Below are positions 1,647 through 63,915 of a DNA stretch of 64,000 nucleotides, piece by piece (the first letter of the stretch is position 1; each line of letters starts with the position of its first letter). This DNA is from a bacterium. GTDB taxonomy: Bacteria; Patescibacteriota; Dojkabacteria; B142; OLB20. A program made the translations under genes and the position numbers. The notes beneath the pieces are model-generated. The model had not been told where the DNA came from. It worked only from the letters and a program-made list of their open reading frames with translations, and ran no database searches. The stretch spans positions 12,080 to 76,079 of the forward strand of contig JAJTYI010000002.1 in the NCBI GenBank assembly GCA_021463645.1. The letters are read 5' to 3'.

Positions 1647-3157
1647 TGGATAAGAATCTATTCCAAAATAAAATAATCATTGAGCTTCTTGAAAAATACC
1701 AATCCATATGGGCATTAGATCACTTGAACAAATTAGCCACATGGGATGGTGAAGTATACATGCCCACAAAAGGTGCTAGATATAGAGGAAAAGCACTCGC
1801 AAAGTCTCAAACACTTATACAACAATTATTCCTCTCTAAAGAGTTTATAAATCTAATAGATTTAGCATCAAACGAGGATTTAAACGAATACGAAAAGTCA
1901 GTAATACGCGTACTAAATAGAGAGTTAGAAATATTCCAGAAACTACCGTCAAAATTTATCGAAAAGTTTGAAGAAACTGTCAGTGAATCCCAAATCGTTT
2001 GGAGAAATGCGAGAAAATTAGACGATTTCAACCTTTTTAAGCCCAATCTGGAAAAAATCGTTGAGCTCTCTAAACAAAAAGCAGAATATCTGGGTTATAA
2101 ATCTAACCCCTATGATGCGCTATTGGACACTTTTGAAGAAGGACTTACCGTCGAATTCCTGGAAGATTATTTCAAAAAAGTTACGGATACAGTGACAAAA
2201 TTACTTTTCTCGCTCAAAAATAATCCCAATTATCCGAAAAAGGACCGGATTTCATCATTAAAATATGATATTGATAGAGCGAAAAAGTTAAACGAATCAA
2301 TTCTAGAATTCCTTCAATATGATAACCAAAAGCTTAGACTGGATATCTCATCACACCCGTTTAGCGAAGGTTTATCAACACAGGATTCTAGAATCACGAC
2401 CAGATACGAAGGTTTTGACATTGCTAGAACAGTTACCTCAACAATACATGAATTTGGTCATGCACTTTACTTTTTGCAACATAATGATGAAATAAACACT
2501 ACTCCACTTTACACAAATTACAGTCTAGCTCTTCACGAAAGCCAGTCAAGGTTTTTTGAGAATCATATAGGTAGATCACATGCTTTCTTTGTTGAGAACT
2601 TATCGAAGTTTCATAAATTGGGTAGTGAATATGAAAAATTTAACGCAGATGATTACTATACTTATTTCAATCAAGTACAACCTAGTTTAATCAGAGTCGA
2701 AGCTGACGAAGTAACTTACCACGCACACATTTATATACGTTATAAAATTGAAAAAGCTTTGATAAATGACGAGATCAAGGTTGAAGATGTTCCAACTACT
2801 TGGAATGAAATGTATCGAGACATTCTGGGAATTTTACCGAAAAATGATACCGAAGGCTGTTTGCAAGACATACATTGGAGCATGGGAGCCATTGGGTATT
2901 TCCCTACATATTCACTAGGTACCGTTTTTGCAAGTCAGATTTCAAGTAAGTTAGAAAAAGAGCTATCTCCAATAAGCGAACTTCTTCCTTCTTCAGTTGG
3001 TGTAAAGAAAATTAATAATTGGTTAGCAGAAAACATTCATCAATATGGTGCGACTTATACTTTTGGACAGATTTCAAATCGATTGACTGGTAGTGAATTG
3101 GATACTAAATATTGGAGTGACTATTTGAATGAAAAGTACAATAAAATCTATAGTTAA
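1646..3157 (+). CDS. M32 metallocarboxypeptidase (carboxypeptidase Taq family)
   Basis: HEFGHALY zinc motif, HESQS, and DIHWSMGAIGYFPTYSLG. The ATG overlaps the upstream TAA (TAATG). Confidence 0.85.
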   Translation: MDKNLFQNKIIIELLEKYQSIWALDHLNKLATWDGEVYMPTKGARYRGKALAKSQTLIQQLFLSKEFINLIDLASNEDLNEYEKSVIRVLNRELEIFQKLPSKFIEKFEETVSESQIVWRNARKLDDFNLFKPNLEKIVELSKQKAEYLGYKSNPYDALLDTFEEGLTVEFLEDYFKKVTDTVTKLLFSLKNNPNYPKKDRISSLKYDIDRAKKLNESILEFLQYDNQKLRLDISSHPFSEGLSTQDSRITTRYEGFDIARTVTSTIHEFGHALYFLQHNDEINTTPLYTNYSLALHESQSRFFENHIGRSHAFFVENLSKFHKLGSEYEKFNADDYYTYFNQVQPSLIRVEADEVTYHAHIYIRYKIEKALINDEIKVEDVPTTWNEMYRDILGILPKNDTEGCLQDIHWSMGAIGYFPTYSLGTVFASQISSKLEKELSPISELLPSSVGVKKINNWLAENIHQYGATYTFGQISNRLTGSELDTKYWSDYLNEKYNKIYS

Positions 3158-3195
3158 TTTTGTATAATATAAATATACAATACCATTCTAAAATC

Positions 3196-4089
3196 ATGGA
3201 TAAAAGACCAACTACCAAATTATTTCTAGATAGTGGAAATCCTACAGATACCCAGAAAGCTATTGATTTACTTGGATATCTGGATGGACAAACCACAAAT
3301 CCCTCATTAGTTGCACAGAATCCAGAGATAAACATGAAATTAACAAATGGAACTCGCCTTTCAGAAAATGAGTTGTTAGAGGAATATAGAAAGATTATTC
3401 AAGATATTAAGAAAATCATACCTGAAGGATCAATTTCTATAGAGGTTTATGCAGATTTGGAAACAAAGAGTGAACAAATGATTAAACAGGCTTTGGAATT
3501 TAATGAATGGATTGAAAATGCTCATATTAAGTTACCTACAAATAAAGAAGGCCTAATTGCAGCGAGGGAATTATCTATAAGTGGGGTAAACTTAAATATG
3601 ACACTCTGTTTCAGTCAACAACAAGCTGCTGCTGTATATTCTGCAACAAAAGTCGCTTCTAGTTCCTCCGTTTATGTGTCCCCTTTTATAGGAAGGTTAG
3701 ATGATATTGGTCTTCAAGGTGTAGATTTAATAGCAAATATCAAACAAATGTATGAAAATAGCGATCATCATGTGGAGTTATTAGCCGCTAGTGTCAGAAA
3801 TATAAAGCAATTCTTATACTGCTTGTATCTTCAGGTCGATATTATCACAGCACCTCTTAAAGTCTACGAGGAATGGGCAAAACTTAACAAAACACTACCT
3901 GGTATTGATCTTGATCCTGCACAGTTTATGGACATGGGGGAATACCTCGATACGAAACACCTACAACAGATGCAATATGAGGAAGTAGATTTAAATAAAA
4001 GTCCAGAACTCTATGAAATTAGTCATGAATTAACAACCAAAGGAATCGTAAAATTTGCCCAAGATTGGAATGCCTTATTGGGGAAATAG
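3196..4089 (+). CDS. Transaldolase / fructose-6-phosphate aldolase family protein
   Basis: KLFLDSGNP..LDGQTTNPSL N-terminal motif and HIKLPTNKEGL (Schiff-base Lys region). Start moved to ATG 3196 (MDKRPTT..). Confidence 0.75.
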   Translation: MDKRPTTKLFLDSGNPTDTQKAIDLLGYLDGQTTNPSLVAQNPEINMKLTNGTRLSENELLEEYRKIIQDIKKIIPEGSISIEVYADLETKSEQMIKQALEFNEWIENAHIKLPTNKEGLIAARELSISGVNLNMTLCFSQQQAAAVYSATKVASSSSVYVSPFIGRLDDIGLQGVDLIANIKQMYENSDHHVELLAASVRNIKQFLYCLYLQVDIITAPLKVYEEWAKLNKTLPGIDLDPAQFMDMGEYLDTKHLQQMQYEEVDLNKSPELYEISHELTTKGIVKFAQDWNALLGK

Positions 4090-18138: not shown

Positions 18139-18183
18139 ATAGAAATTTAAAGATTAAGAAATTAAGGAATTCAGGAATTATAA
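18139..18183 (+). repeat. Diverged copy of the purine-rich post-stop-codon motif
   Basis: GTATAGAAATTTAAAGATTAAGAAATTAAGGAATTCAGGAATT lies directly after the dsbA-like stop. It aligns with the copies at 43.7, 46.1 and 62.7 kb read on their sense strand. Confidence 0.5.
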
Positions 18184-18184
18184 G

Positions 18185-18208
18185 TCCCTGCGAAAGCAGG
18201 GATTTTTT
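18185..18208 (+). terminator. Rho-independent terminator
   Basis: TCCCTGC-GAAA-GCAGGGA hairpin followed by TTTTTT. Confidence 0.7.
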
Positions 18209-20803: not shown

Positions 20804-21150
20804 CTTGACTTCTTAAATACCTTCATACGAAGGATTTTAATTAAAGTAAAGCCATCTAGAACGAATAGAGAGTAAAAAAGTAACCCGCAAATCAATTTGA
20901 AAACATCGATTTTACCATCGACCCAATAGCTTACAGGCCAACCTCGAAGAACTTCACCGTCTGAACCGTCCGTTTTGATTAAAAGACTTAAAGTTAAGAG
21001 AAGAATAGTCCCAACAATTATTCCGATAATATTCCTACGGGAATGTGCAAGTCGAACTTTAAACAAGAAATAAAGTATGGCATCAAAAAGTGCCATGAAA
21101 ATAATTGCTATCACTACGAGGGAGGAAACTAAAGTATCGAAAGGGTTCAT
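20800..21150 (-). CDS. Small membrane protein, unknown function
   Basis: 116 aa, 3-4 TM helices; 4-nt overlap with the CYTH gene. Confidence 0.45.
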   Translation of the reverse strand: MNPFDTLVSSLVVIAIIFMALFDAILYFLFKVRLAHSRRNIIGIIVGTILLLTLSLLIKTDGSDGEVLRGWPVSYWVDGKIDVFKLICGLLFYSLFVLDGFTLIKILRMKVFKKSR

Positions 21151-21239
21151 ATGTATTGTTAATATGGTTAATTATAGCGGAGGGAATAAATTAATTAAAT
21201 ACCATATTTCTGAGTTTCGTTGTTGTAAGAATTATGTTG

Positions 21240-21245
21240 TATAAT
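21240..21245 (+). promoter_or_regulatory. Candidate -10 box (TGTTGTATAATC context) for the tRNA-Gln locus
   Basis: TATAAT lies about 10 nt upstream of the tRNA-like 5' fragment. The same GTTGTATAATC string recurs at 61965-61976. Confidence 0.4.
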
Positions 21246-21255
21246 CTTAGCGTAT

Positions 21256-21368
21256 TCGGAGATCGTCTAATCTAATGAGGAGTTAGTGAGCTTGAGCGAA
21301 GCGAAAAGCGAACTTATCCGAATTAGCCCCGTAAGCTTACGCAGTTAGCTGTACGGGGTCTATTAGAC
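21256..21368 (+). other. Duplicate of the first 16 nt of tRNA-Gln fused to a Y-shaped structured insert
   Basis: TCGGAGATCGTCTAAT (21256-21271) is identical to tRNA positions 21417-21432. It is followed by nested stems GTCTAAT/ATTAGAC, CTAAT/ATTAG and CCCCGTA/TACGGGG. Confidence 0.5.
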
Positions 21369-21416
21369 AAGACAAGCAAATAAATAAGGCATAGTATTTA
21401 AACTGTAAAAAATTAA

Positions 21417-21487
21417 TCGGAGATCGTCTAATGGTAGGACAACAGTTTCTGAAGCTGTTTATCTAGGTTCGAGCCCTAGTCTCCGAA
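21417..21487 (+). tRNA. tRNA-Gln (anticodon CUG)
   Basis: Hand-folded cloverleaf: acceptor TCGGAGA/TCTCCGA, D arm GTCT..GGAC, anticodon arm ACAGT-TTCTGAA-GCTGT, T arm CTAGG-TTCGAGC-CCTAG. No encoded CCA. Confidence 0.9.
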
Positions 21488-21988
21488 TTTTGTTTTTTAA
21501 TTATTAAATACCTTAATTTCTACATTTTAATATTAGGTTCTCCCTTACAACTTATACGGAAACTCGTTAGTGAAAGGGATTAACCAGCAGTAATGTTCGA
21601 TAAATCTCACAAACTGCTGCTAAAGAGCCCCTGTCTGCCGACAGGCAGGCTAGTCTCCGAATTTTGTAAATTAAATATTAATTTAATTAGTTCATTTTAA
21701 TCCTAGGTTCTCCCTTACAACTTATACGGAAACTCGTTAGTGAAAGGGATTAACCAGCAGTATTGTTCGATAAATCTCACAAACTGCTGCTAAAGAGCCC
21801 CTGTCTGCCGACAGGCAGGCTAGTCTCCGAATTTCTTTAAGAACAGATAAATCTATAATTCAAAAGGTATTTCTTTGGTTCTCCCTCACTCTGGTAGAGG
21901 GAGGGACTAACCAGCAGTAATGTTCGGTCTTACCTCACAAACTGCTGCTAAAGAGCACCTGTCTGCCAACAGGCAGGCTAGTCTCTGA
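21488..21988 (+). repeat. Three tandem units (period about 170-173 bp), each ending in a T-loop-interrupted copy of the tRNA-Gln 3' end
   Basis: Units are 21534-21660, 21704-21830 (one mismatch to unit 1) and 21877-21988 (diverged). Each reads (CTA)GGTTC + hairpin-rich insert + CTAGTCTCCGAATTT. In unit 3 the first hairpin is replaced by a different perfectly paired stem. Confidence 0.85.
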
Positions 21989-22013
21989 ATTTAATTCTTA
22001 AAAATTGCCCCTA

Positions 22014-22373
22014 ATGATGAACACCAACAAAAACATTAACTCCATTGATGAATATATAGGTCAGTATGACATTGATATTCAAGAAAAATTAACCAAGATA
22101 AGAGACTTTCTAAGACCACTAATTCCAGATGTTGAAGAAGCAATGACATACGGTATACCAACGTTTAAATCTAAAGGAAAAAATATTTCCCATTTCGCTA
22201 ACTATGAATCCCATATTGGATTGTATCCCGGCTCTAGTGCAGTTGAAGAATTTAAGGATAAATTAAACGACTTTAAAATTTCAAAAGGAACAATTCAGAT
22301 AAAGCACGATCAAGACCTTCCATTCGAATTGATAAAACAAATGGTCAAATTTAATCTGGAGAATCTAGAGTAA
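22014..22373 (+). CDS. DUF1801 (YdhG-like) domain protein
   Basis: SIDEYI....IQEKLTKIRDFLRPLIPDVEEAMTYGIPTFK is the pattern of the YdhG/DUF1801 family. Start moved to ATG 22014. Confidence 0.6.
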   Translation: MMNTNKNINSIDEYIGQYDIDIQEKLTKIRDFLRPLIPDVEEAMTYGIPTFKSKGKNISHFANYESHIGLYPGSSAVEEFKDKLNDFKISKGTIQIKHDQDLPFELIKQMVKFNLENLE

Positions 22374-22382
22374 CAGGGCTTT

Positions 22383-22769
22383 TTAGCGACTTCGTTTTGT
22401 ATAGGCTCTCCATAACATCCTGATGAATGAAATAGGTAGCATAGCTAACATTATGTAATAAATCGTTTCCTCTGTCTTATCTTTTGCACCTTGTTCAAGC
22501 AAATACAAAAAGATGAAAAAGAAAAGCGCATGCAATAGAACGAAGAGTAATAAAATTGGAATAAACTGAACCTCCCCTCTAAAAGCCTTTACGAAGGCAT
22601 CCCACATATTCATAGAAACAGATTTTCTGATTCTTATACTTTGTGGATTTTCTTCAATTATAGGTTCATTCTCTTTTCCTTGATCATATTTTCCAGTTAA
22701 TAGAAAAAACATAATTGAGAGAAATGATAAGAAGGTTAAAACTCCGATGATTACTACGAAAGTTAACAT
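22383..22769 (-). CDS. Membrane protein, unknown function
   Basis: 128 aa with an N-terminal TM and two C-terminal TMs. Confidence 0.45.
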   Translation of the reverse strand: MLTFVVIIGVLTFLSFLSIMFFLLTGKYDQGKENEPIIEENPQSIRIRKSVSMNMWDAFVKAFRGEVQFIPILLLFVLLHALFFFIFLYLLEQGAKDKTEETIYYIMLAMLPISFIRMLWRAYTKRSR

Positions 22770-22838
22770 ATTTAAGAAATATAATTGTTAAATTTTAACA
22801 TGTTACTGGGATAATAAAAATGGAATTTATATGGTGTA

Positions 22839-23855
22839 TTAGCTTTCGTTTTTATCCTCTTTGCCCCCTTCATTAGGCAATATCTTATTTAACAGTGTAA
22901 TAATATTTCCCCATCTACGTTCCATATCATCCAAAAATTTCGGATCAATCGGCTTAATTTTCTTTGGTGCATAAGGATTCCATTCCTTTCTAGGTCTAGA
23001 AGTGACAGTGGGATCTGATTGTTTTTCATCCCCATCCCATGATACGCTAACACGCCCTCCGCCTTCTGACTTCTGTGGAATCAAATTTCGTAGAAATGCA
23101 GAAAGTAACATACCAGCACCTAACACAAGAGCAATTCCTGCTGCCGCTAATGCCCGTCTTTCATGAGGGGTAAGATTATCTAAACTAAATCCTTTTTGTT
23201 CTCCGTTTAAATTCCCGTTAGATGAACTTGGTGTAACTGCTGGAGTGGGTGCAGGGATTGATTCTGCAACAAGGGGCGCTGGATTAGGAATACCACCAAC
23301 CGGATGGATAACAGAAACAAATTTATCATCAGTGAAACAAACATTCCCTGCACCATCAACTCCTAACAAAGCGCCTTTAGAGAGTGCATATTCACAGGTT
23401 AGCACGACAGGATTTATACCCTCATCATTACTCTCACAATAATAAGGCCCATTAGGATGTAGAACAAACGGCGCTATTCCGTTTTCCCCAGGCTGAACTG
23501 CATCTTCACAATCGATTTCTACAGGTCGATCAGGTTGTTGATATTCGACCAAAGCAGTAGGGACAACCGCCATGAGCGTAGACATCATAGGCGAAAATAC
23601 TGAGCTAATTTCTCCATTTTTCATATCCAAAGCGAAAAGTTGTAAACCAGCCTTCATGGATCCCATGTCTTCCCTGAAATCCGCTTGTAGAGTTCCACCT
23701 GTTAGATATTGCATAAGTCTTCTTCCCCAACTATCTGGAGCAACACCAGTGCTTGTTACCGGATTTTCAAGTTGGGCATTATCAGGTTTAGGTAAACGCC
23801 TTCCAGAGAAAATTAAAGTATCTACCATTAGCTTGTAAACATTAATTAAAGCCAT
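22839..23855 (-). CDS. Single-pass membrane protein, unknown function; visibly more G+C-rich than its neighbours
   Basis: 338-aa ORF. One TM (AAAGIALVLGAGMLLSAFL) after a Pro/Thr linker. Long antisense ORFs reflect the composition shift. Confidence 0.5.
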   Translation of the reverse strand: MALINVYKLMVDTLIFSGRRLPKPDNAQLENPVTSTGVAPDSWGRRLMQYLTGGTLQADFREDMGSMKAGLQLFALDMKNGEISSVFSPMMSTLMAVVPTALVEYQQPDRPVEIDCEDAVQPGENGIAPFVLHPNGPYYCESNDEGINPVVLTCEYALSKGALLGVDGAGNVCFTDDKFVSVIHPVGGIPNPAPLVAESIPAPTPAVTPSSSNGNLNGEQKGFSLDNLTPHERRALAAAGIALVLGAGMLLSAFLRNLIPQKSEGGGRVSVSWDGDEKQSDPTVTSRPRKEWNPYAPKKIKPIDPKFLDDMERRWGNIITLLNKILPNEGGKEDKNES

Positions 23856-24014
23856 TATACATCCTTAAAGCTATAGATTCAATATATATCGCATTCCTTT
23901 GTAGATAATAAGTCGAGTATATTGTTTTAATTGAAGAGGGAGAAATGAGTTTTATTCATAAGAAATTTAAAAAAAGCGAACTTCTGGAAAAAGTCATAAC
24001 TAATTCCCAAAGAT

Positions 24015-24473
24015 TTATTCCGTGTGAGATGAGTCTTTTAACAAAAAGATACAAATAAAGAAGAGACTAATTAAAGCATATATAATTGCCAAAACCCCGT
24101 AATTTATTGGAACCTCCAAAGTTATCAAAGCAACTACAACTATATTAAATACCATAACTACGAAACTATTAACTTTTAATTCAGAACCTCGTCCAGGAAT
24201 CAGGTTAGTCCCAATCAACATCGTAACTCCGAAGTTATAAATGTAATCGAAAGGGTGTAAGGGGAGCTTTATGCCGAGGAATGCAATTAATGCTACTATT
24301 ATAAGTATGAATGAATTACCTAATAATATACCAGTAATGACTAACAATATTTGTACCGGGTAACTAAACCTGATACCGTATTGCACGCTCTTCTTATCTG
24401 ATATTAATCTACATGCTATCCACTTCGAGAAAAATCGTTCTTTAATTTTTCCTAATAAGTCTTCCGTTTTCAT
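24015..24473 (-). CDS. Polytopic membrane protein, unknown function
   Basis: 152 aa, 4 predicted TM helices. Confidence 0.5.
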   Translation of the reverse strand: MKTEDLLGKIKERFFSKWIACRLISDKKSVQYGIRFSYPVQILLVITGILLGNSFILIIVALIAFLGIKLPLHPFDYIYNFGVTMLIGTNLIPGRGSELKVNSFVVMVFNIVVVALITLEVPINYGVLAIIYALISLFFICIFLLKDSSHTE

Positions 24474-24510
24474 TAGCTCGTATACTTGTGCTGAAGAAAT
24501 TGGTTTTGTT

Positions 24511-24568
24511 CGGCTAAGAGATGTGAGCCCTGATTTTCATCAGGATAAACTCCATCGAACCGCCTAAT
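24511..24568 (-). repeat. Distal degenerate T-arm-like fragment with hairpin
   Basis: The minus-sense sequence GGCGGTTCGATGGAG is followed by the hairpin CCTGAT-GAAA-ATCAGG. It shares GGTTCGATGGAG with the proximal element. Confidence 0.5.
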
Positions 24569-24584
24569 GAAATTGTATACAAAA

Positions 24585-24641
24585 AGCGGGCGATCCCTCC
24601 CTAAGAATTTGGGAGGGACAGGCTCCATCGAACCCGTATCC
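24585..24641 (-). repeat. T-loop-interrupted copy of the tRNA-Gly 3' end
   Basis: The minus-sense sequence starts GGATACGGGTTCGAT, identical to the tRNA. A roughly 33-nt insert with hairpin TCCCTCCC..GGGAGGGA follows. It ends TCGCCCGCTTTTTGTA, identical to the tRNA 3' end plus trailer. Confidence 0.8.
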
Positions 24642-24655
24642 ATTTATTTACAAAA

Positions 24656-24727
24656 AGCGGGCGACGGGAATCGAACCCGTATCCTTGGTTTGGAAAACCA
24701 ATATAATGACCGCTATACTACGCCCGC
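24656..24727 (-). tRNA. tRNA-Gly (anticodon UCC)
   Basis: Hand-folded cloverleaf: acceptor GCGGGCG/CGCCCGC, anticodon arm TTGGT-TTTCCAA-ACCAA, T arm CGGGT-TCGATTC-CCGTC. No encoded CCA. Confidence 0.9.
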
Positions 24728-24789
24728 TTTTTTTAAAGAACAGCCAATTATAACTAATTATCGTCAGATTATAAAGTGGGAGTTATTTA

Positions 24790-25251
24790 TTAATTCACAA
24801 TTCTGGTAGGTCCGACAGTGTCTGTTATTGCTTCTGTTGGAGTTGGAGTCTGAGTGGGTCTGGGTGTTGAAGTAGGTGGGACCTTAGTTGGAATAGAAGT
24901 TGGGACCGGTGTGATTGTGGGTGTATGCCTTTCGAAGTCATCGAGATACCCCTCAATTATCTGATCAAGATGAGATCTTTCGATAAGTCTATCTAATAAT
25001 GGAATATTTTCTGCTGATTGAACAAAATTCGAGAATCCAGTTAGAAACAATGCAAAGCCAATACTTGCTCCAATAGCAGTGAAAACACCATTTAATAATC
25101 CTCTTAAAATCACGTTTCGCTTACGATTTACATTCGTAAGTTTATTGAGATTTTTGTTTAATTCAATTATTTCGTATTTTAAGGTATTACCGTTTTGATA
25201 CACACCTTGTGTAGGAATCGGCTTTTTTGGTCCTGGAGCAGTATCTTGCAT
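24790..25251 (-). CDS. Membrane-anchored protein with Pro/Thr-rich C-terminus, unknown function
   Basis: One TM (VFTAIGASIGFALFLTGF) and the C-terminal tail TPVPTSIPTKVPPTSTPRPTQTPTPT. Confidence 0.5.
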   Translation of the reverse strand: MQDTAPGPKKPIPTQGVYQNGNTLKYEIIELNKNLNKLTNVNRKRNVILRGLLNGVFTAIGASIGFALFLTGFSNFVQSAENIPLLDRLIERSHLDQIIEGYLDDFERHTPTITPVPTSIPTKVPPTSTPRPTQTPTPTEAITDTVGPTRIVN

Positions 25252-33825: not shown

Positions 33826-33980
33826 GCGAGAGATTCCCGCTACCGAGGGAAAATGATTCATTTCCCTGACCTGATCCCGCCTTGGATACTTGGCAGGACG
33901 GATCTCTAGGTAGTGATTTCTCGAGTTATACAGTGCTGAAATCATCTGCGAGAGATCCCTTCTTTCGAAGGGAAATTAAA
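33826..33980. repeat. REP-like hairpin modules (GAGAGAT-CCC family)
   Basis: GCGAGAGATTCCC-GCTACCGA-GGGAAAATG, TTTCCCTGACCTGATC..GGATCTCTAG and GCGAGAGATCCCTT-CTTTCG-AAGGGAAATTAAA. Colinear with 43413-43516. Confidence 0.7.
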
Positions 33981-34000
33981 CGTACTGAATGCTGAATATT

Positions 34001-39424: not shown

Positions 39425-39540
39425 TGTCATTCCTGAGACAAACTGTCACTCCTGCGACTAATTGTCACTCCTGCGAAGGCAGGAGTCTATTCCAAGTCCT
39501 ACATTATAAAGGATAGATTCCTGCCTTCGCAGGAATGACA
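39425..39540. repeat. MITE/REP-like element with nested palindromes
   Basis: Three direct TGTCA[CT]TCCTG[AC]GA words are followed by TGTCACTCCTGCGAAGGCAGGA. About 34 nt later comes its inverted partner TCCTGCCTTCGCAGGAATGACA. Each arm is itself a CCTGC-GAA-GCAGG hairpin. Confidence 0.7.
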
Positions 39541-43304: not shown

Positions 43305-43360
43305 ATATAATAGAAAATGGGTGAAGTCAATAACCTTGAAGATTTGGAATATATTAACAT

Positions 43361-43520
43361 GAGATCCCCGCTGGAGTTTACACCAAACCTGATTTGGTGC
43401 GGGGATATCTATTAATTTCCCTGACTTGATCAGGGATCTCTAGACTGTGAATTACCTAAGAGATACCTTATATAGAAAAGTTTGAGAGAGATACCCTTTT
43501 CCGAGGGGAAATTAAAATCA
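43361..43520. repeat. REP-like hairpin modules (GAGAGAT-CCC family)
   Basis: Nested stems ATCCCCGC..GCGGGGAT around CACCAAA..TTTGGTG, then TTTCCCTGACTTGATCAGGGATCTCTAG, then GAGAGAGATACCCTT-TTCCGA-GGGGAAATTAAA. Colinear with 33858-33980. Confidence 0.7.
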
Positions 43521-43544
43521 CTCAATTTCTTAAATTCTTCATTT
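43521..43544 (-). repeat. Purine-rich post-stop motif, core copy G
   Basis: The sense strand reads AAATGAAGAATTTAAGAAATTGAG. The TGA inside it is the stop of the 62-aa ORF. Confidence 0.6.
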
Positions 43545-43727: not shown

Positions 43728-43732
43728 ATTTT

Positions 43733-43783
43733 TATTTCTTAATATCTTAATTTCTAAATTTCTTCATTTCCACATTCCTGAAA
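43733..43783 (-). repeat. Purine-rich post-stop motif, copy A
   Basis: The sense strand reads ..GGAATGTGGAAATGAAGAAATTTAGAAATTAAGATATTAAGAAAT, starting 5 nt after the stop at 43788. Confidence 0.7.
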
Positions 43784-43787
43784 GTAG

Positions 43788-44777
43788 TTATACCTCACTA
43801 ATAACATCAAAACCTTTGAAACTTCCAGTGATTGCTAAGCCAATTAATTTCCCTTCACATAATCCTTTTCGCTTAATTTGAGCAGCAGTTTCATTTAATG
43901 TTGCACCAGAACCTACAGCATCATCAATTAACAAGATGTTTTTATACTTTTTGTTATCTTCTACAACAATAGTGTGTTTTGCATTTTCTATACGATCTCC
44001 CAATTTACTCAAAGTCTTTTGAGGTACCGATATTTCCGTTTTTATTTTACTTACCTTAAGAATCGGCAAAGGAAGACTTAAATTGCGTTCCAACTCTTTC
44101 ATGAATTGAACTTCTCTTTTTACTGTCGGTGGGATGAATACTATTCCATCAACATCATATCTTTTAACTAGTTGAAGTAATTTGGGGTGGATTTCGTCTG
44201 ATAGAGATTTAATTAATTTTTTATCTTGGCTTTGCTTTGCATACAGTAATAATTGTCCAATCCTAGTTTTTCCAAATCTCTCAATACTATAGAAATCTAT
44301 ATAATATAGTCTGTCAAGATTCACTAAGTTAAAAGTCATCTTAAGTTTATCCAAACCACTGATAAAACCTTTTTGTTTATACTTACTATATTTATCAAGT
44401 GTTTTCACGTATTCTTTTGCTGTTTTAATAGGATTCTGATTTGTTTTTTCACACCACATCACGAACCCCTCCCAACCTTGCTTTTGTTCTCCTCGAGGCG
44501 AGATATACAAATAATTCTTGTCAATTTTATTTTTTACGCTTTTATCAATTACTTCATATTCAAGACCCAATGATTTAGCTTTTCTGTCAGTATCATTTAT
44601 AAGGTAAAATACCTTTGGAGGTTTTCCAACCTTACGTAATTGTCCAGATTCTAGAAGACTTTTAAGCTGTTTTCTAACCGCTCTAGGAGTAATGTCCTGC
44701 AAGTAATCGACCAGCTCTTTTCCACTGGCTTGATTATTTTCACGAATGTATTGAATGATTTTTTCTGAAGTTTTCAT
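43788..44777 (-). CDS. Winged-helix DNA-binding domain fused to a ComF-like phosphoribosyltransferase domain
   Basis: N-terminal wHTH (IIQYIRENNQASGKELVDYLQDITPRAVRKQLKSLLESGQL). C-terminal PRTase loop ILLIDDAVGSGATLNE with ComF-like upstream pattern (..IVFIPPT.., RIENAKHT). Confidence 0.7.
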   Translation of the reverse strand: MKTSEKIIQYIRENNQASGKELVDYLQDITPRAVRKQLKSLLESGQLRKVGKPPKVFYLINDTDRKAKSLGLEYEVIDKSVKNKIDKNYLYISPRGEQKQGWEGFVMWCEKTNQNPIKTAKEYVKTLDKYSKYKQKGFISGLDKLKMTFNLVNLDRLYYIDFYSIERFGKTRIGQLLLYAKQSQDKKLIKSLSDEIHPKLLQLVKRYDVDGIVFIPPTVKREVQFMKELERNLSLPLPILKVSKIKTEISVPQKTLSKLGDRIENAKHTIVVEDNKKYKNILLIDDAVGSGATLNETAAQIKRKGLCEGKLIGLAITGSFKGFDVISEV

Positions 44778-44865: not shown

Positions 44866-44904
44866 TTTGAATTTTAAATTTCTTCATATCTAAATCTCTA
44901 CATC
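44866..44904 (-). repeat. Purine-rich post-stop motif, copy B
   Basis: The sense strand reads GATGTAGAGATTTAGATATGAAGAAATTTAAAATTCAAA, after the stop at 44918. Confidence 0.65.
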
Positions 44905-44917
44905 TTTTATCTGGATT

Positions 44918-45502
44918 CTACCTCAAAATCCTCACAAACTCCCCCTCATCGAGTGTCAAAATCGGCAAATCCGGTGATATTTTCTTCAGTAGATTTATTT
45001 TCAATTCTCGTCTTTGTTCAATGTCCCAGTGACACAAGAGATTGATATCTAGTAAACCTATTCCTTTATGTACGTTTTGGTTATCTTGGTAATCGAAAGA
45101 TAGAACATAATGCGAACATACCATAAAAGCTCCCATAGAACCCCCTGCATACGTTTTGCCTTTAAGTTTTTTCTCTAGGTTTGTGAATTATTGGTAGTAG
45201 GGTTCAATCAACTTTGCATCTCCTCCCACAACATATAAAACATCGAATTGATCGATTTTCGCATTAAAGTCATCTACGTCCTCAACAACTTCTACTTCAA
45301 CATTTTTATATGAGTTCTCAGTAATTTTCTTTCTATAACTTTCCTTTTTTACATCCCAAAACTTCTTTTCCACTGCCCATAGGCACAATAGTAATCTAAC
45401 ATTATCTTTACCTGGAACATCCACCATCTCTTTGAAAAATCTTGTATTACTTTTTCTTTTAATTGAGGTATTACCGCCGTGGAGTAGGTATTTTGTGTGC
45501 AT
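44918..45502 (-). pseudogene. Peptidase S51 (dipeptidase E-like) gene interrupted by one in-frame TAA
   Basis: ORFs 45188..45502 and 44918..45136 are in the same frame. The 51-nt gap translates without further stops (..YYQ*FTNLEKKLKGKTYAGGSMGAF..) and restores the GGS nucleophile region. Confidence 0.7.
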
Positions 45503-45890: not shown

Positions 45891-45935
45891 CCCTCAATTT
45901 CTTAATATCTACATTCCTAAATCTCTACATTACCC
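45891..45935 (-). repeat. Purine-rich post-stop motif, degenerate copy C
   Basis: The sense strand reads GGGTAATGTAGAGATTTAGGAATGTAGATATTAAGAAATTGAGGG. Confidence 0.6.
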
Positions 45936-45939
45936 TTTT

Positions 45940-46077
45940 TCATTCATTCTGTAATTTCTCTAATTCTTTAATCCTTTTCTCTGCTTCTTTTTCTTTGCGT
46001 TGGATTTCTTTAGGATCATCTGTACTCTTTATCAACTCTACCTTTCCTAATTCGATATCGGTAATGAAGTCTTTCAT
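45940..46077 (-). CDS. Possible 45-aa charged coiled-coil-like peptide (not in the supplied ORF track)
   Basis: The ATG at 46077 to the TGA at 45940 gives MKDFITDIELGKVELIKSTDDPKEIQRKEKEAEKRIKELEKLQNE. The only support is an open frame between two motif copies. Confidence 0.25.
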   Translation of the reverse strand: MKDFITDIELGKVELIKSTDDPKEIQRKEKEAEKRIKELEKLQNE

Positions 46078-46126: not shown

Positions 46127-46174
46127 CTGAATTTTCCTAATCCCTTAATTTCTAAATCTCTTCATTTTCCTCAC
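46127..46174 (-). repeat. Purine-rich post-stop motif, copy D
   Basis: The sense strand reads GTGAGGAAAATGAAGAGATTTAGAAATTAAGGGATTAGGAAAATTCAG, beginning at the stop of the receiver gene. Confidence 0.7.
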
Positions 46175-46599
46175 TCCCCTACCCAAACCATTTTCTGCAA
46201 TTCCAACTCAAATACATAAGCAGAGAAAAAAGAATCAAATTCGGCATAAATCTCCCAGAATGTTTTACCCACCAGATTTATGAAATGAACTTTCAATTCT
46301 TTTGTAATATATTCTTCAAAATCTTGAACATCAAAGACCGAGAATAATGCTATTGCTGGAGTGCCAAAAATTTTAGGATTTCTTTTGATAATTTCTGCGA
46401 TTTCCAAACCAGAAACTGGAGACATAAGCATGTCGGCTATCACAAATTCATAATTCTGAGTCCGAAGTCTATCAAAACCTTCATCTGCTGTCGTCACATG
46501 CTCCACAACAAGGTCTGGGCGAAATTCTTGGTAATCATCATAAGCACCATCGAAATCAGTCTCGTCGAAACAAAGTACTCTAGCTAAACCGTTCTGCAT
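46171..46599 (-). CDS. Stand-alone receiver (CheY-like REC) domain protein
   Basis: RVLCFDETD acidic pocket, FVIADMLMSPVSGLEIAEIIK (putative phospho-Asp) and PAIALFS. No output domain and no kinase in the window. Confidence 0.55.
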   Translation of the reverse strand: MQNGLARVLCFDETDFDGAYDDYQEFRPDLVVEHVTTADEGFDRLRTQNYEFVIADMLMSPVSGLEIAEIIKRNPKIFGTPAIALFSVFDVQDFEEYITKELKVHFINLVGKTFWEIYAEFDSFFSAYVFELELQKMVWVGE

Positions 46600-61040: not shown

Positions 61041-61150
61041 CCTTCCCAAATATAATTTCCAATCCCAAAATTCCTAAATCTATAAATTTTCCCTCCTCAT
61101 TTCTTAATTCCTCAATCCCTAAATCTCTAAATTCCTCAATTCCTTCACCT
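61041..61150 (-). repeat. Purine-rich post-stop motif, double copy E (overlaps the last codons of the Cas4-like gene)
   Basis: The sense strand reads GGAATTGAGGAATTTAGAGATTTAGGGATTGAGGAATTAAGAAATGAGGAGGGAAAATTTATAGATTTAGGAATTTTGGGATTGGAAATT. Confidence 0.6.
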
Positions 61151-61859
61151 TCCTCTGGTATCCACACCACTCACACCCCTCTGAATACCCCGGAATTTCT
61201 TCACCCATCAAACACCCCTTAATCTCCCTCAACTTCCCCTCTATCCAACTATCATCCCCTATATAGGGAATTACTGAGATTTTGAATTCTAGTTTTGCAT
61301 CGAAGGCTTGTTTGTCTTTGATGCCATTGCAGTAAACAAAGTAGCCAGTATTAGAAACTTCAAAACCATTTCTTCGTAGTAACCATTGATATATTTCCAT
61401 TTGTCTTTTGTAGGACATTTGCCAATCAGCATCGATATTTACCTCATCTTTCTTTGAAGTTGATTTGTAGTCCACTACTATTAATTCTCCTTTTGGATTT
61501 ACCCAAACATCATCCACTGCACCTGCGACCAATAAGTTTGTTTCTTCATGCAAATATTGAACTCCTTGGAAATTCTCTCTCCAGATATCGATATCTTTGT
61601 GAGTGAAAGGAATTGCATCGATTCCATAAGCGGTCATCAGTGGATGGGGGTCGCCTTTGATACGATGGGTATCGAATTCTTGCTTTAATAAGTGGTCAAC
61701 AGCAGAATTTAAACTGAAAGGTGGACCAGATGGTTGTTTGACACCGAGTCTTCTATCCAGATAAAAACAATGCGGACAATTAATGAAGAATTCAATTCCC
61801 GATCTGCTGATTTTGTAAGCTTCGTCTCTCTGTGGATCAAACTGCCCTCGATACGCCAT
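61119..61859 (-). CDS. Cas4/RecB-like PD-(D/E)xK nuclease with four terminal cysteines
   Basis: N-terminal CPHC and C-terminal CEWC. GAVDDVWV (motif II Asp), VVDYKST (DxK) and QMEIYQWLL (QxxxY). Confidence 0.8.
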   Translation of the reverse strand: MAYRGQFDPQRDEAYKISRSGIEFFINCPHCFYLDRRLGVKQPSGPPFSLNSAVDHLLKQEFDTHRIKGDPHPLMTAYGIDAIPFTHKDIDIWRENFQGVQYLHEETNLLVAGAVDDVWVNPKGELIVVDYKSTSKKDEVNIDADWQMSYKRQMEIYQWLLRRNGFEVSNTGYFVYCNGIKDKQAFDAKLEFKISVIPYIGDDSWIEGKLREIKGCLMGEEIPGYSEGCEWCGYQRKVKELRNLEI

Positions 61860-62715: not shown

Positions 62716-62772
62716 CTGAATTTTGAATTCTTAATCTCTTAATTTCTTCATTTCTAAATCTCTACATCTCCC
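62716..62772 (-). repeat. Purine-rich post-stop motif, copy F (best-preserved)
   Basis: The sense strand reads GGGAGATGTAGAGATTTAGAAATGAAGAAATTAAGAGATTAAGAATTCAAAATTCAG, starting immediately after the TAA at 62773. Confidence 0.7.
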
Positions 62773-63915
62773 TTACACACTCATCGTCCTCCTTATCGAA
62801 GTTAACCTCATTGGTTCATTGTTTGAATCCTTAATCTCACTTGGTATATAGATCTCTGGTTCTCCATTATGTCTACGTTTTAGTTGTCCATCATTTCCGA
62901 ATAAACATACCGGTAATCTATAATCCAACGAATATCCTTGGGATTGGAGTCTTGCGGGTAATGAAGTAGGGAAAAAAACTTGTTTTCTACCTAAAAATCC
63001 TGTTACACCAGGTACTTGTTCGCTTGACATATTAGCTGGATAGATTTCGTGATTCTCACCATCAAGTCGAACATTGAATAAGTTTCTTGCTGTATTTTGA
63101 AAAATCGTAAGCTGTTCAAAAAGTTCAAGATTACCTTTTGCTATACCACTAAGTTGTGCTATAAAACCGGCATATCTTTTATTAATCTTTTTGATTTCAG
63201 CCTTATTTAGAACTAATGCACTCTCTTTATCATTTATTCTTCTGATATCCTGAATTGCAGTATTAATATAATTTAATCTATAAACTACATAATCTACTAA
63301 TTGTGGAAGTCTTAACATCCCAACTAAATCATTGAGTTCATCGTCTCTCAAATCCGTGTGATGTACTCTACCCAACTCACCTCTTATTTGGTAATGTTGA
63401 TAATCATTTAAATCATACCTTTGAGTTTCAACTAACGCATTAAATGTTAGAAACGCCTTCATTCTTTCAACCCTCTTGATTATACTTGCTTCAATAATAT
63501 TATTTAATTGTTTCTCTGCCGAGGCTGATGCTGCTAACTCCTCTCTACGTAGAATTGCAGGTTTGGCTGATTCAACAAATTTCGCAGGATAAAGTGCTCT
63601 CAATGTAGAGGATAATATTACTTCAAAAGGAAGAGGAAACCCTCCAAGTTCCGAAGTCACTCTATCTTTGACATCCAATATTTCATCTTGATGTGAAACA
63701 CTTTCAGGCAAGATTAAGACATGAGCTCGTGCTCCACTTAATAGTTCTCCATATGTAACAGGTTTTGACAAATCTCCTGATGAATTTAATAAACGAAAAT
63801 CAGGAAGCGTTTTATCAATAAATAGCACTTCCACGGCATCTCTCATTGTTCGAATGTGAGGATGTTCAGGCCTTGGCCTCCTACCTCTTTTTTTTGTAAC
63901 TCCGTCTTCAGGCAT
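62773..63915 (-). CDS. Hypothetical 380-aa protein with a basic N-terminus
   Basis: Long ATG ORF (MPEDGVTKKRGRRPRPEHP..); no motif I can assign. Confidence 0.5.
   Translation of the reverse strand: MPEDGVTKKRGRRPRPEHPHIRTMRDAVEVLFIDKTLPDFRLLNSSGDLSKPVTYGELLSGARAHVLILPESVSHQDEILDVKDRVTSELGGFPLPFEVILSSTLRALYPAKFVESAKPAILRREELAASASAEKQLNNIIEASIIKRVERMKAFLTFNALVETQRYDLNDYQHYQIRGELGRVHHTDLRDDELNDLVGMLRLPQLVDYVVYRLNYINTAIQDIRRINDKESALVLNKAEIKKINKRYAGFIAQLSGIAKGNLELFEQLTIFQNTARNLFNVRLDGENHEIYPANMSSEQVPGVTGFLGRKQVFFPTSLPARLQSQGYSLDYRLPVCLFGNDGQLKRRHNGEPEIYIPSEIKDSNNEPMRLTSIRRTMSV

Follow-up and report, generated by a model that had tools for sequence, protein, structure and literature searches.

A 64,000-nt stretch of DNA (the window), placed in Candidatus Dojkabacteria (Patescibacteria, Candidate Phyla Radiation) from the threonyl-tRNA synthetase (ThrRS) gene that adjoins its glycine transfer RNA (tRNA) gene, carries behind tRNA-Gly(UCC) two short copies, units c1 and c2, which are partial duplicates of the 3' end of this gene with half of the T arm replaced by a hairpin. 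Comparison with related genomes indicates that these copies are old, vertically inherited units and not recent local accidents. We tentatively favour, with slightly less than even confidence, the view that they belong to birth-and-death arrays of tRNA 3'-end duplications that arose by recombination at tRNA genes and carry an inherited, structurally constrained hairpin.

The live tRNA-Gly gene occupies 24656-24727 of the minus strand, discriminator included (ARAGORN; Rfam, 67.8 bits); CCA is not encoded, and the U-rich trailer TTTTGTA follows at 24649-24655. Exactly 14 nt, made up of this trailer (24655-24649) and AATAAAT (24648-24642), separate the gene from unit c1 (24578-24641, minus strand). 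The first part of c1, GGATACGGGTTCGAT (24641-24627), matches tRNA positions 45-59 at 15 of 15 bases, and its last part, TCGCCCGCTTTTTGTA (24593-24578), matches the acceptor strand at the tRNA 3' end and the trailer at 16 of 16. Between them stands an insert of 33 nt (24626-24594), GGAG-CCTG-TCCCTCCC-AAATTCTTA-GGGAGGGA, in which GGAG-CCTG (24619-24626) precedes the hairpin TCCCTCCC/AAATTCTTA/GGGAGGGA (24594-24618); its stem forms eight of eight pairs (fold z = -2.2). Where the insert stands, the copy lacks five bases of the tRNA, TCCCG. Thirteen bases further on, unit c2 (24512-24564, minus strand) is composed of GGCGGTTCGAT (24554-24564), GGAGTTTA (24546-24553), the hairpin TCCTGAT-GAAA-ATCAGGG (24528-24545, 7/7 pairs) and a tail, CTCAC... 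(about 24512-24527), which is the decayed acceptor strand of an older allele. Both units follow a common plan, namely the T-stem 5' strand plus TTCGAT, GGAG-N4, a hairpin of 7-8 bp, the acceptor 3' strand and the U-rich trailer of the tRNA itself, and the interruption measures 27-33 nt.

These matches are far beyond chance, since GGTTCGATGGAG occurs twice in the window against 0.07 expected occurrences and the Gly copies reach local alignment scores of 30-32 against a shuffle maximum of 20. The initial annotation, made from this stretch by itself, had described the 14-nt gap, the identity of both c1 flanks with the tRNA, a hairpin insert of about 33 nt and a degenerate second copy, and it proved correct in every detail. 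An assembly artefact was ruled out by the identical structure in 10 independent assemblies from different samples; eight further species A assemblies have an unchanged 316-nt intergenic region, and the unit region is likewise identical in the GTDB representative, L014. A 56-amino-acid open reading frame (ORF) across the Gly units (24473-24643) is not conserved in L004 and was regarded as spurious. Among the Rfam 15 families only the two tRNAs match at the unit regions, even at E <= 10, other matches having E >= 0.1 and falling far under threshold.

Syntenic loci of relatives, designated here by L numbers, were collected through homologues of ThrRS and of geneX, the next gene co-directional with tRNA-Gly (24015-24473, minus strand; 152 amino acids, with a weak DUF4395 profile match and synteny in relatives). 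The identity of their ThrRS to that of the window is 93% in L122, 78% in L002, 71% in L004, L005 and L028, 65% in L007, 63% in L008 and 62% in L010; species A is that of the window, species B that of L004 and species C that of L010 and L131. The tRNA-Gly sequence is 100% the same in L002, L004 and L010. The c1 type is common to the window and L002, and the c2 type to the window, L002 and L004, so both types are older than the split of these species. In L002, an array of at least five units (U0-U4) lies 3 kb downstream of tRNA-Gly, just past secA. U0 is a plain fragment of the same kind as the displaced fragment of L010; U1 is of c2 type, with its old acceptor strand CTCACCCGC intact; U2, GGGTTCGTCGAT-GGACTCTG-TCCCTAC-GAAA-GTAGGGA-TCGCCCGC-TTTC..., is of c1 type and the counterpart of window c1; U3 is decayed and U4 is of c2 type. 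In L004, L005 and L028, a 5' fragment, GCGGGCGTAGT, and 14 nt stand before the tRNA-Gly gene. Behind the gene come, in this order, about 170 nt of hairpin-rich insert, a 3' fragment that belongs to an older allele and has no interruption (GGCGGTTCGATTCCCCTCACCCGCTTTTTGTA), a c2-type unit that is complete (GGCGGTTCGAA-GGAGTTTA-TCCTGAC-AAAA-GTCAATA-TTGCCCG-TTTTTTGTA) and a decayed unit, c3 (TAAGTTTATGCATATAAAAAGTAAGGCTCACC). A c2-like module stands in front of a tRNA-Leu 3' fragment in L007, and the counterparts of window c2 are U1 of L002, c2 and c3 of L004 and this Leu unit. Only a plain decayed Gly fragment is seen in L010 and none in L008; L059 has a 12-nt 3' repeat around a 57-nt insert, and L137 a hairpin-plus-acceptor remnant. 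Wherever an examined relative carries it, the oldest tRNA-Gly fragment is found immediately upstream of the orthologue of geneX.

A covariance model (R2) built on seven Gly-type units and searched against 12 related loci recovers exactly the Gly-type members and nothing else in these loci; its scores for c1 and c2 are 44.3 and 55.6 bits. The acceptor allele of the c2 type, CACCCGC, is the older one and is complementary to the outer 5' fragment of L002, GCGGGTG. From their sequences, the plain fragment of L004, GGCGGTTCGAT-TCCC-CTCACCCGC, and U1 of L002, in which identical flanks enclose the module, resemble an empty site and its filled form. Two further observations concern the surroundings of the live genes. 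The essential gene secA (13272-15900 of L002) lies between tRNA-Gly and the displaced array, which hints at a rearrangement, one break point of which lay at the tRNA locus. CCA is encoded by the live tRNA-Gly of L002 (12645) and L059 (13232) and by the tRNA-Cys of L007 (3346), and is absent from the tRNA-Gly of the window (24656), L004 and L010, although these are otherwise identical; such differences between live copies suggest that the 3' flank of the gene has been replaced repeatedly.

The hairpin has been retained in some copies and lost in others. All stem pairs are formed in c1 of the window and U2 of L002 (8/8 and 7/7), as well as in c2 of the window and U1 of L002 (7/7 and 6/6), and the stem is progressively less complete in the Leu unit of L007 (6/7), c2 of L004 (5/7), U4 of L002 (4/7) and c3 of L004 (2/7). 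Partial decay is also evident in window c2, little of whose acceptor strand is left. Three compensatory double changes are found in Gly-type stems between species: in the c1 type the distal stem reads CCC/GGG in one species and AC/GT in the other (TCCCTCCC/GGGAGGGA in the window, TCCCTAC/GTAGGGA in U2 of L002), and in the c2 stem a T-A pair is changed to C-G at position 7 in L004 and at position 4 in the Leu unit of L007. The hairpin loop is GAAA in two Gly units.

The second tRNA gene of the window, tRNA-Gln(CUG) (21417-21487, plus strand), is the only other one called by ARAGORN and Rfam; it is convergent with tRNA-Gly, with four small genes between them. Sequence comparison delimits three tandem units behind it (21534-21661, 21704-21831 and 21875-21989, plus strand), which occupy the space up to the DUF1801 gene, the first two repeating with a 170-nt period. 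Each joins the T-stem 5' strand and TTC to a three-hairpin insert of about 105 nt, behind which CTAGTCTCCGA and the trailer follow. An outer 5' fragment, TCGGAGATCGTCTAAT (tRNA positions 1-16, 21256-21271), lies 161 nt upstream of tRNA-Gln, right behind a TATAAT box, and together with a hairpin-bearing insert of 145 nt it spans 21256-21416 of the plus strand (alignment score 32 against a null maximum of 25). The Gln unit is present as a single copy in the species of L004 and L028, and the number and order of units vary among species A assemblies. Between species A and the L004/L028 species it is 88-92% identical, and in the same comparison ThrRS is 74%, geneX 75%, DUF1801 64% and the spacer 74% identical. 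The fold obtained with RNAalifold contains three hairpins and two compensatory pairs, and two strain polymorphisms within the stems are compatible with G·U pairing. Judged by these comparisons the Gln unit looks constrained, and it is the strongest hint that some of the units may do something. It has no match in Rfam, and scans of genomes, metagenomes and viral sequences with a conserved Gln 18-mer found true units only in species A and the L004/L028 species; in the second metagenome scan the true matches lay on just one contig, from one of these two species. The first metagenome scan, with a 35-nt piece of tRNA-Gly, found nothing.

The initial annotation had proposed aligning the inserts to test for a single family; the Gly and Gln inserts do not form one, as covariance models R1 and R2 each find only their own members. 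The resemblance noticed at that time between the c1 insert hairpin and the first hairpin of the third Gln unit is real, with a shared 8-mer (GGGAGGGA) and a TCCCTC start, but weak, neither family's model finding the other. The first hairpins of both families start with TCCCT, in the T-loop region where the T-arm 3' half would begin. A global relatedness of all inserts by k-mer content was rejected, being above a mononucleotide-shuffle null but not above a control of real intergenic sequence; only specific long matches were retained.

A self-match scan around every tRNA in the fetched loci revealed that partial self-copies flank tRNA-Gly, tRNA-Gln, tRNA-Cys and tRNA-Leu on both 5' and 3' sides in this Dojkabacteria subclade, which upholds the inference of a general phenomenon that the initial annotation drew from the architecture shared by the two tRNA loci of the window; this architecture is lineage-wide and not local. 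Break points fall at positions 11-16, 34/35, 42-45 and 56-60, in or beside the D, anticodon, variable and T loops. The accompanying idea of specificity for the T loop did not hold, since there are also 5' fragments ending at 11-16, one break at 34/35 and copies that start in the variable loop. Recurrent targeting of the T loop is neither shown nor needed: c1 and c2 types are shared by descent, and a single ancient event, or a few, with later duplication and recombination, are enough. In L002 and L122, positions 1-13 of tRNA-Gly are followed by homologous inserts that the window lacks; their first hairpin covaries (CCTCC/GGAGG vs CCAGC/GCTGG), with a conserved ACAAGTAAC behind it. The 5' fragments of tRNA-Cys and tRNA-Leu in L007 end at position 16. 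At 3070-3440 of the same locus, an older tRNA-Cys copy is split into halves 1-34 and 35-72, and a complete tRNA-Cys (GGTGAT/ATCACC, CCA encoded) is nested between them. The allele of the older copy, GGTGAC/GTCACC, shows covariation shared between the halves; the nested gene is flanked by the inverted repeat GGATCCCG...CGGGATCC, with a further 1-16 fragment upstream. The 3' repeats end at the U-run with the trailer included, and two 5' copies share the leader with the live gene, so the copies derive from DNA and not from mature tRNA, whose retro-copying was rejected on these grounds.

The interval between tRNA-Gly and tRNA-Gln is a variable island. Strain and species comparison delimits it at 21150-25040, bounded by the two convergent tRNA genes. 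This block, with both tRNA loci and the four genes, is 0-1.6% diverged between species A strains (comparison with L123-L130), whereas in the flanks of these strains the divergence is 9-11% on the side of ThrRS and a glycosyltransferase and about 20% to the left of 21150. The contrast points to a recent sweep or to horizontal transfer or replacement of the whole island, and the identity of units within the species therefore says nothing about selection; the invariance of the units within this near-identical 3.9-kb island was ruled out as evidence for it. Gene content and presence or absence differ at the same tRNA between related genomes: the interval holds geneX, genes for proteins of 338 and 128 amino acids and DUF1801 in species A; geneX and DUF1801 in species B (L004); HIT, geneX, HAD, NUDIX, glyoxalase, methyltransferase and a ParE pair in species C (L010/L131); a further variant with MazG and EamA genes in L133; and secA with the unit array in L002. 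The genes of the window are ordinary chromosomal genes. The 128-amino-acid ORF (22383-22769, minus strand) matches only the middle of an MFS transporter profile (positions 155-264 of 347) and is probably a gene remnant within the island.

In L010, L131 and L133, tRNA-Gly and a decayed fragment that has been displaced, AGTTCGAACTTCCTGCAGTAGCCCGCTT, have a HIT gene of 159 amino acids exactly between them; the fragment in turn lies immediately upstream of the orthologue of geneX. A direct repeat of the tRNA 3' end at the far end of inserted DNA is accordingly seen in L010 and L131. Coincidence of the copies with the ends of integrated elements, which the initial annotation had named as evidence against its own interpretation, is found in part: the HIT gene is bracketed in L010 and L131 and the island is variable, but the gap from the tRNA to c1 in the window is just 14 nt. 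The bracketing and the variability of the island tie the copies to DNA insertion at tRNA genes. An integron-like array, with a fragment after every cassette, is not seen in the species C islands. An origin from phage attachment sites (attP) was rejected, as neither the Gln unit core nor the Gln 3' 21-mer has true viral matches; the Gly 3' 21-mer matches 70 viral contigs, and its sequence is that of a generic bacterial tRNA-Gly end. An IS91-type GTTC/CAAG target rule, a TnpB/IscB-type guide RNA and a Cas12k homing CRISPR RNA were dismissed, the junctions being inconsistent and no such proteins being present.

According to the reading that we favour, each unit would be a DNA-level partial duplicate of the 3' third of tRNA-Gly, from the variable loop to the U-rich trailer, in which the T-arm 3' half was replaced by GGAG-N4 and a hairpin of 6-8 bp resembling terminator stem-loops of the window; a local stem-loop of this kind, TCCCTGC-GAAA-GCAGGGA-TTTTTT at 18185, is similar to the c1 and c2 hairpins. 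DNA would recombine into the tRNA gene, the incoming DNA bringing a new tRNA end and the old end being pushed into the adjacent island, and the tRNA-Gly to tRNA-Gln interval would be such an island; DNA would have recombined repeatedly into these tRNA genes. The displaced 3' ends may persist as a short tandem array that grows, shrinks and decays, and that may be re-homogenised against the live tRNA through recombination across shared tracts of 15-18 nt. The hairpin would have been gained once or a few times long ago and inherited with the units, not re-inserted at each event. It may be kept by selection, most plausibly through read-through from the tRNA promoter and an action in RNA, candidate roles being 3'-end protection, processing or insulation from the next gene. 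This reading is supported by the exact architecture, by the presence of the same unit types in distant relatives, by the compensatory stem changes and the decay of some copies, by the empty and filled sites, the older acceptor allele and the unit boundaries that include the trailer, by the HIT gene bracketed in relatives and the variable island, by the dynamics of the Gln array, by the similarity of the hairpin to a local terminator stem-loop and by published precedent.

Several observations weigh against it. No integrase, transposase or reverse transcriptase was found among the approximately 37 ORFs of the window (Pfam) or the unannotated ORFs of the island, relatives included (PHROGs), and the same scans of window and island ORFs yielded no protein able to target GGTTCGA, the search that had been proposed at the outset. 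The 14 nt between the tRNA and c1 hold no identifiable element. A classical attR is an uninterrupted block of identity reaching the tRNA 3' end, which here occurs only in the plain fragments of L004, L002 (U0) and L010, whereas c1 and c2 are interrupted. Fragments of the 5' end that start exactly at +1 and have tiny inserts, and likewise a nested tRNA-Cys, are not made by ordinary integrases, which restore the 3' end. The c1 flanks are the same as the live tRNA at 31 of 31 positions around an unrelated insert, which needs two-sided gene conversion, or selection. A terminator scan of 24400-24900 and 21100-22100 found no intrinsic terminator, that is, a G+C-rich hairpin directly before a U tract, and the stem lies 8-9 nt from the U-run in the Gly units, so a simple terminator role is not supported. 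With the interruption, the tiny spacers, the flank identity of c1, the 5' copies from +1, the nested tRNA-Cys and the lack of a recombinase, the pattern goes beyond ordinary integration scars; it is of a kind already known, tRNA gene fragments at island borders, with an unusual architecture and partial constraint.

The units and their 5' counterparts might alternatively be products of an undescribed, lineage-specific process at tRNA loop apices, a possibility that we regard as rather unlikely overall. Such a process could be a mobile hairpin module or a recombinase that reshapes tRNA genes and leaves one copy intact, or it could produce co-transcribed RNAs that mimic tRNA ends. The clearest case of such RNAs would be the conserved Gln unit, and they would act in tRNA maturation or would defend the cell from tRNA-directed nucleases or integrating elements.

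The first of these forms comes close to the view of the initial annotation, in which an active small mobile hairpin element, or recombination machinery, would insert in DNA at the apices of T, D and anticodon loops, only insertions in redundant partial copies surviving. We consider this unlikely. The breaks do cluster at 11-16, 34/35 and 56-60, and both empty and filled sites exist. Nearly the same module, GRAGTTTATCCYGATGA...ATCRG, is found in a Gly unit (window, L002, L004) and, with Leu-specific flanks, in the Leu unit of L007; a 10-nt loop, GAGTTTACGA, is common to the Gly unit of L004 and the Leu unit of L007 on different stems; and the homologous 5' insert with covarying stems, absent from the window, occupies the same site (13/14) in L002 and L122. 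Yet no copies occur outside tRNA-derived units in the 64 kb and the loci of 12 relatives, where no terminal repeats, consistent target-site duplication or transposase were found either, and overall k-mer sharing among inserts is not above the real-intergenic control. The unit types, shared by descent, require few events, and Gly and Leu tRNAs share GGGTTCGATTCCC, which makes transfer of the module by T-arm recombination an alternative.

It is likewise improbable, in our judgement, that the units are functional RNAs made with or beside the tRNA, that is, mimics, decoys or guides carrying the tRNA 3' end on one strand or its complement on the other, which could serve in pre-tRNA processing, in protection from tRNA-directed nucleases or in guiding a protein to the tRNA gene. 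The conservation of the Gln unit above its flanking genes (64-75% identity), its compensatory and G·U-compatible changes, the covarying Gly hairpins with GAAA loops in two of them, and the maintenance of intact units 3 kb from the tRNA in L002 are consistent with such a role, and the tRNA-identical tail includes the trailer, as expected of a guide against the gene. Against it stand the lack of any Rfam match even at the permissive threshold, of a predicted promoter or terminator within the unit arrays and of an associated protein gene, the decay of many units, the shortness of the Gly units and the lost tail of window c2, and the restriction of the family to a few species. Purely neutral scars of classical integrase integrations followed by deletion, with hairpins as unconstrained leftovers of element ends or terminators, would agree with the bracketed HIT gene, the variable island, the plain uninterrupted fragments (L004, L002 U0, L010, L131) and the literature precedent (PMC9897764; bioRxiv 10.1101/2020.12.28.424599), but are still less probable, given the compensatory changes that keep stems intact across species, the GGAG-N4-hairpin design recurring in all intact units, the conservation of the Gln unit above the coding level, and the lack of any integrase or remnant of one in window and island ORFs.

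Successive integrations are known to push partial tRNA copies into islands, as with the Prochlorococcus tycheposons (PMC9897764; bioRxiv 10.1101/2020.12.28.424599). As in these attL/attR partial tRNAs, the tRNA 3' direct repeat lies on the island side with older copies deeper, the island content varies among relatives, and in one relative a gene is bracketed by tRNA and fragment. The copies described here differ in being hairpin-interrupted and packed in tight tandem arrays 7-46 nt apart, in having neither integrase nor element body, in including 5'-end copies and a nested split tRNA, and in the structural constraint on their hairpins. Interruptions in the D, anticodon and T loops with structured inserts between the pieces also recall the non-canonical introns and split or permuted tRNA genes of archaea (PMC3218864; PMC3241643), but the host is a bacterium, and the copies lack positions 1-44, adjoin an intact gene and include the trailer. 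No bulge-helix-bulge splicing motif was identified, and ARAGORN and Rfam call only the intact genes, with no complete tRNA assembled from exons.

REP elements with their RAYT transposases and the hairpin ends of the IS200/IS605 type form many dispersed intergenic copies and are associated with a Y1/HUH transposase. The modules resemble them in the conserved tetranucleotide GRAG, which is placed at a constant spacing 5' of a short hairpin whose stem covaries, and in their intergenic position downstream of genes, but occur only inside tRNA-derived units, always with tRNA flanks. Motif and covariance-model searches for dispersed hairpin copies matched only tRNA-derived units, and profile scans of the window ORFs found no Y1/HUH transposase gene. 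In type III toxin-antitoxin systems, tandem antitoxin RNA repeats stand upstream of a co-directional protein gene. The short tandem array of structured repeats before a co-directional gene is similar here, but the DUF4395-like and DUF1801 genes downstream are not known toxins, and the repeats are tRNA-derived and partly decayed.

Partial tRNA copies are usually taken for passive integration scars. Here they make up ordered arrays with a hairpin maintained by compensatory changes, are found at both ends of several tRNA genes and include the nested tRNA, all in a tiny-genome lineage with little non-coding DNA. Should the units be functional or mobile, they would give insight into how single-copy essential tRNA genes and the variable islands next to them are maintained or exchanged. 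If they are only scars, the layers that repeated insertions left are of use for reconstructing island history, and they are a caution to annotators about tRNA fragments.

Other intergenic elements were noticed in the window. Two homologous structured elements of about 150 nt, e.g. GAGAGATCCCTTCTTTCGAAGGGAAATTAAA, lie at 33830-33990 and 43350-43526; neither matches an Rfam family at the gathering score, and they may be two copies of an undescribed cis-regulatory RNA. An AT-rich, AGAAATTAAG-like repeat motif occurs at 18140-18186, 43730-43792, 44866-44920, 45893-45947, 46128-46182, 61050-61165 and 62730-62784, and also at 21495-21534. It follows the stop codon directly and in gene sense at both sites checked (18140 and 62730), and in the spacers of the Gln units its orientation is opposite to tRNA-Gln. 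A convergent hairpin pair, CTCCTGC-GAAG-GCAGGAG and TTCCTGCC-TTCG-CAGGAA, is found between convergent genes at 39463-39540; a copy of this hairpin follows the Gln unit in the L028 species (L028 955-985), and it is likely a local terminator type.

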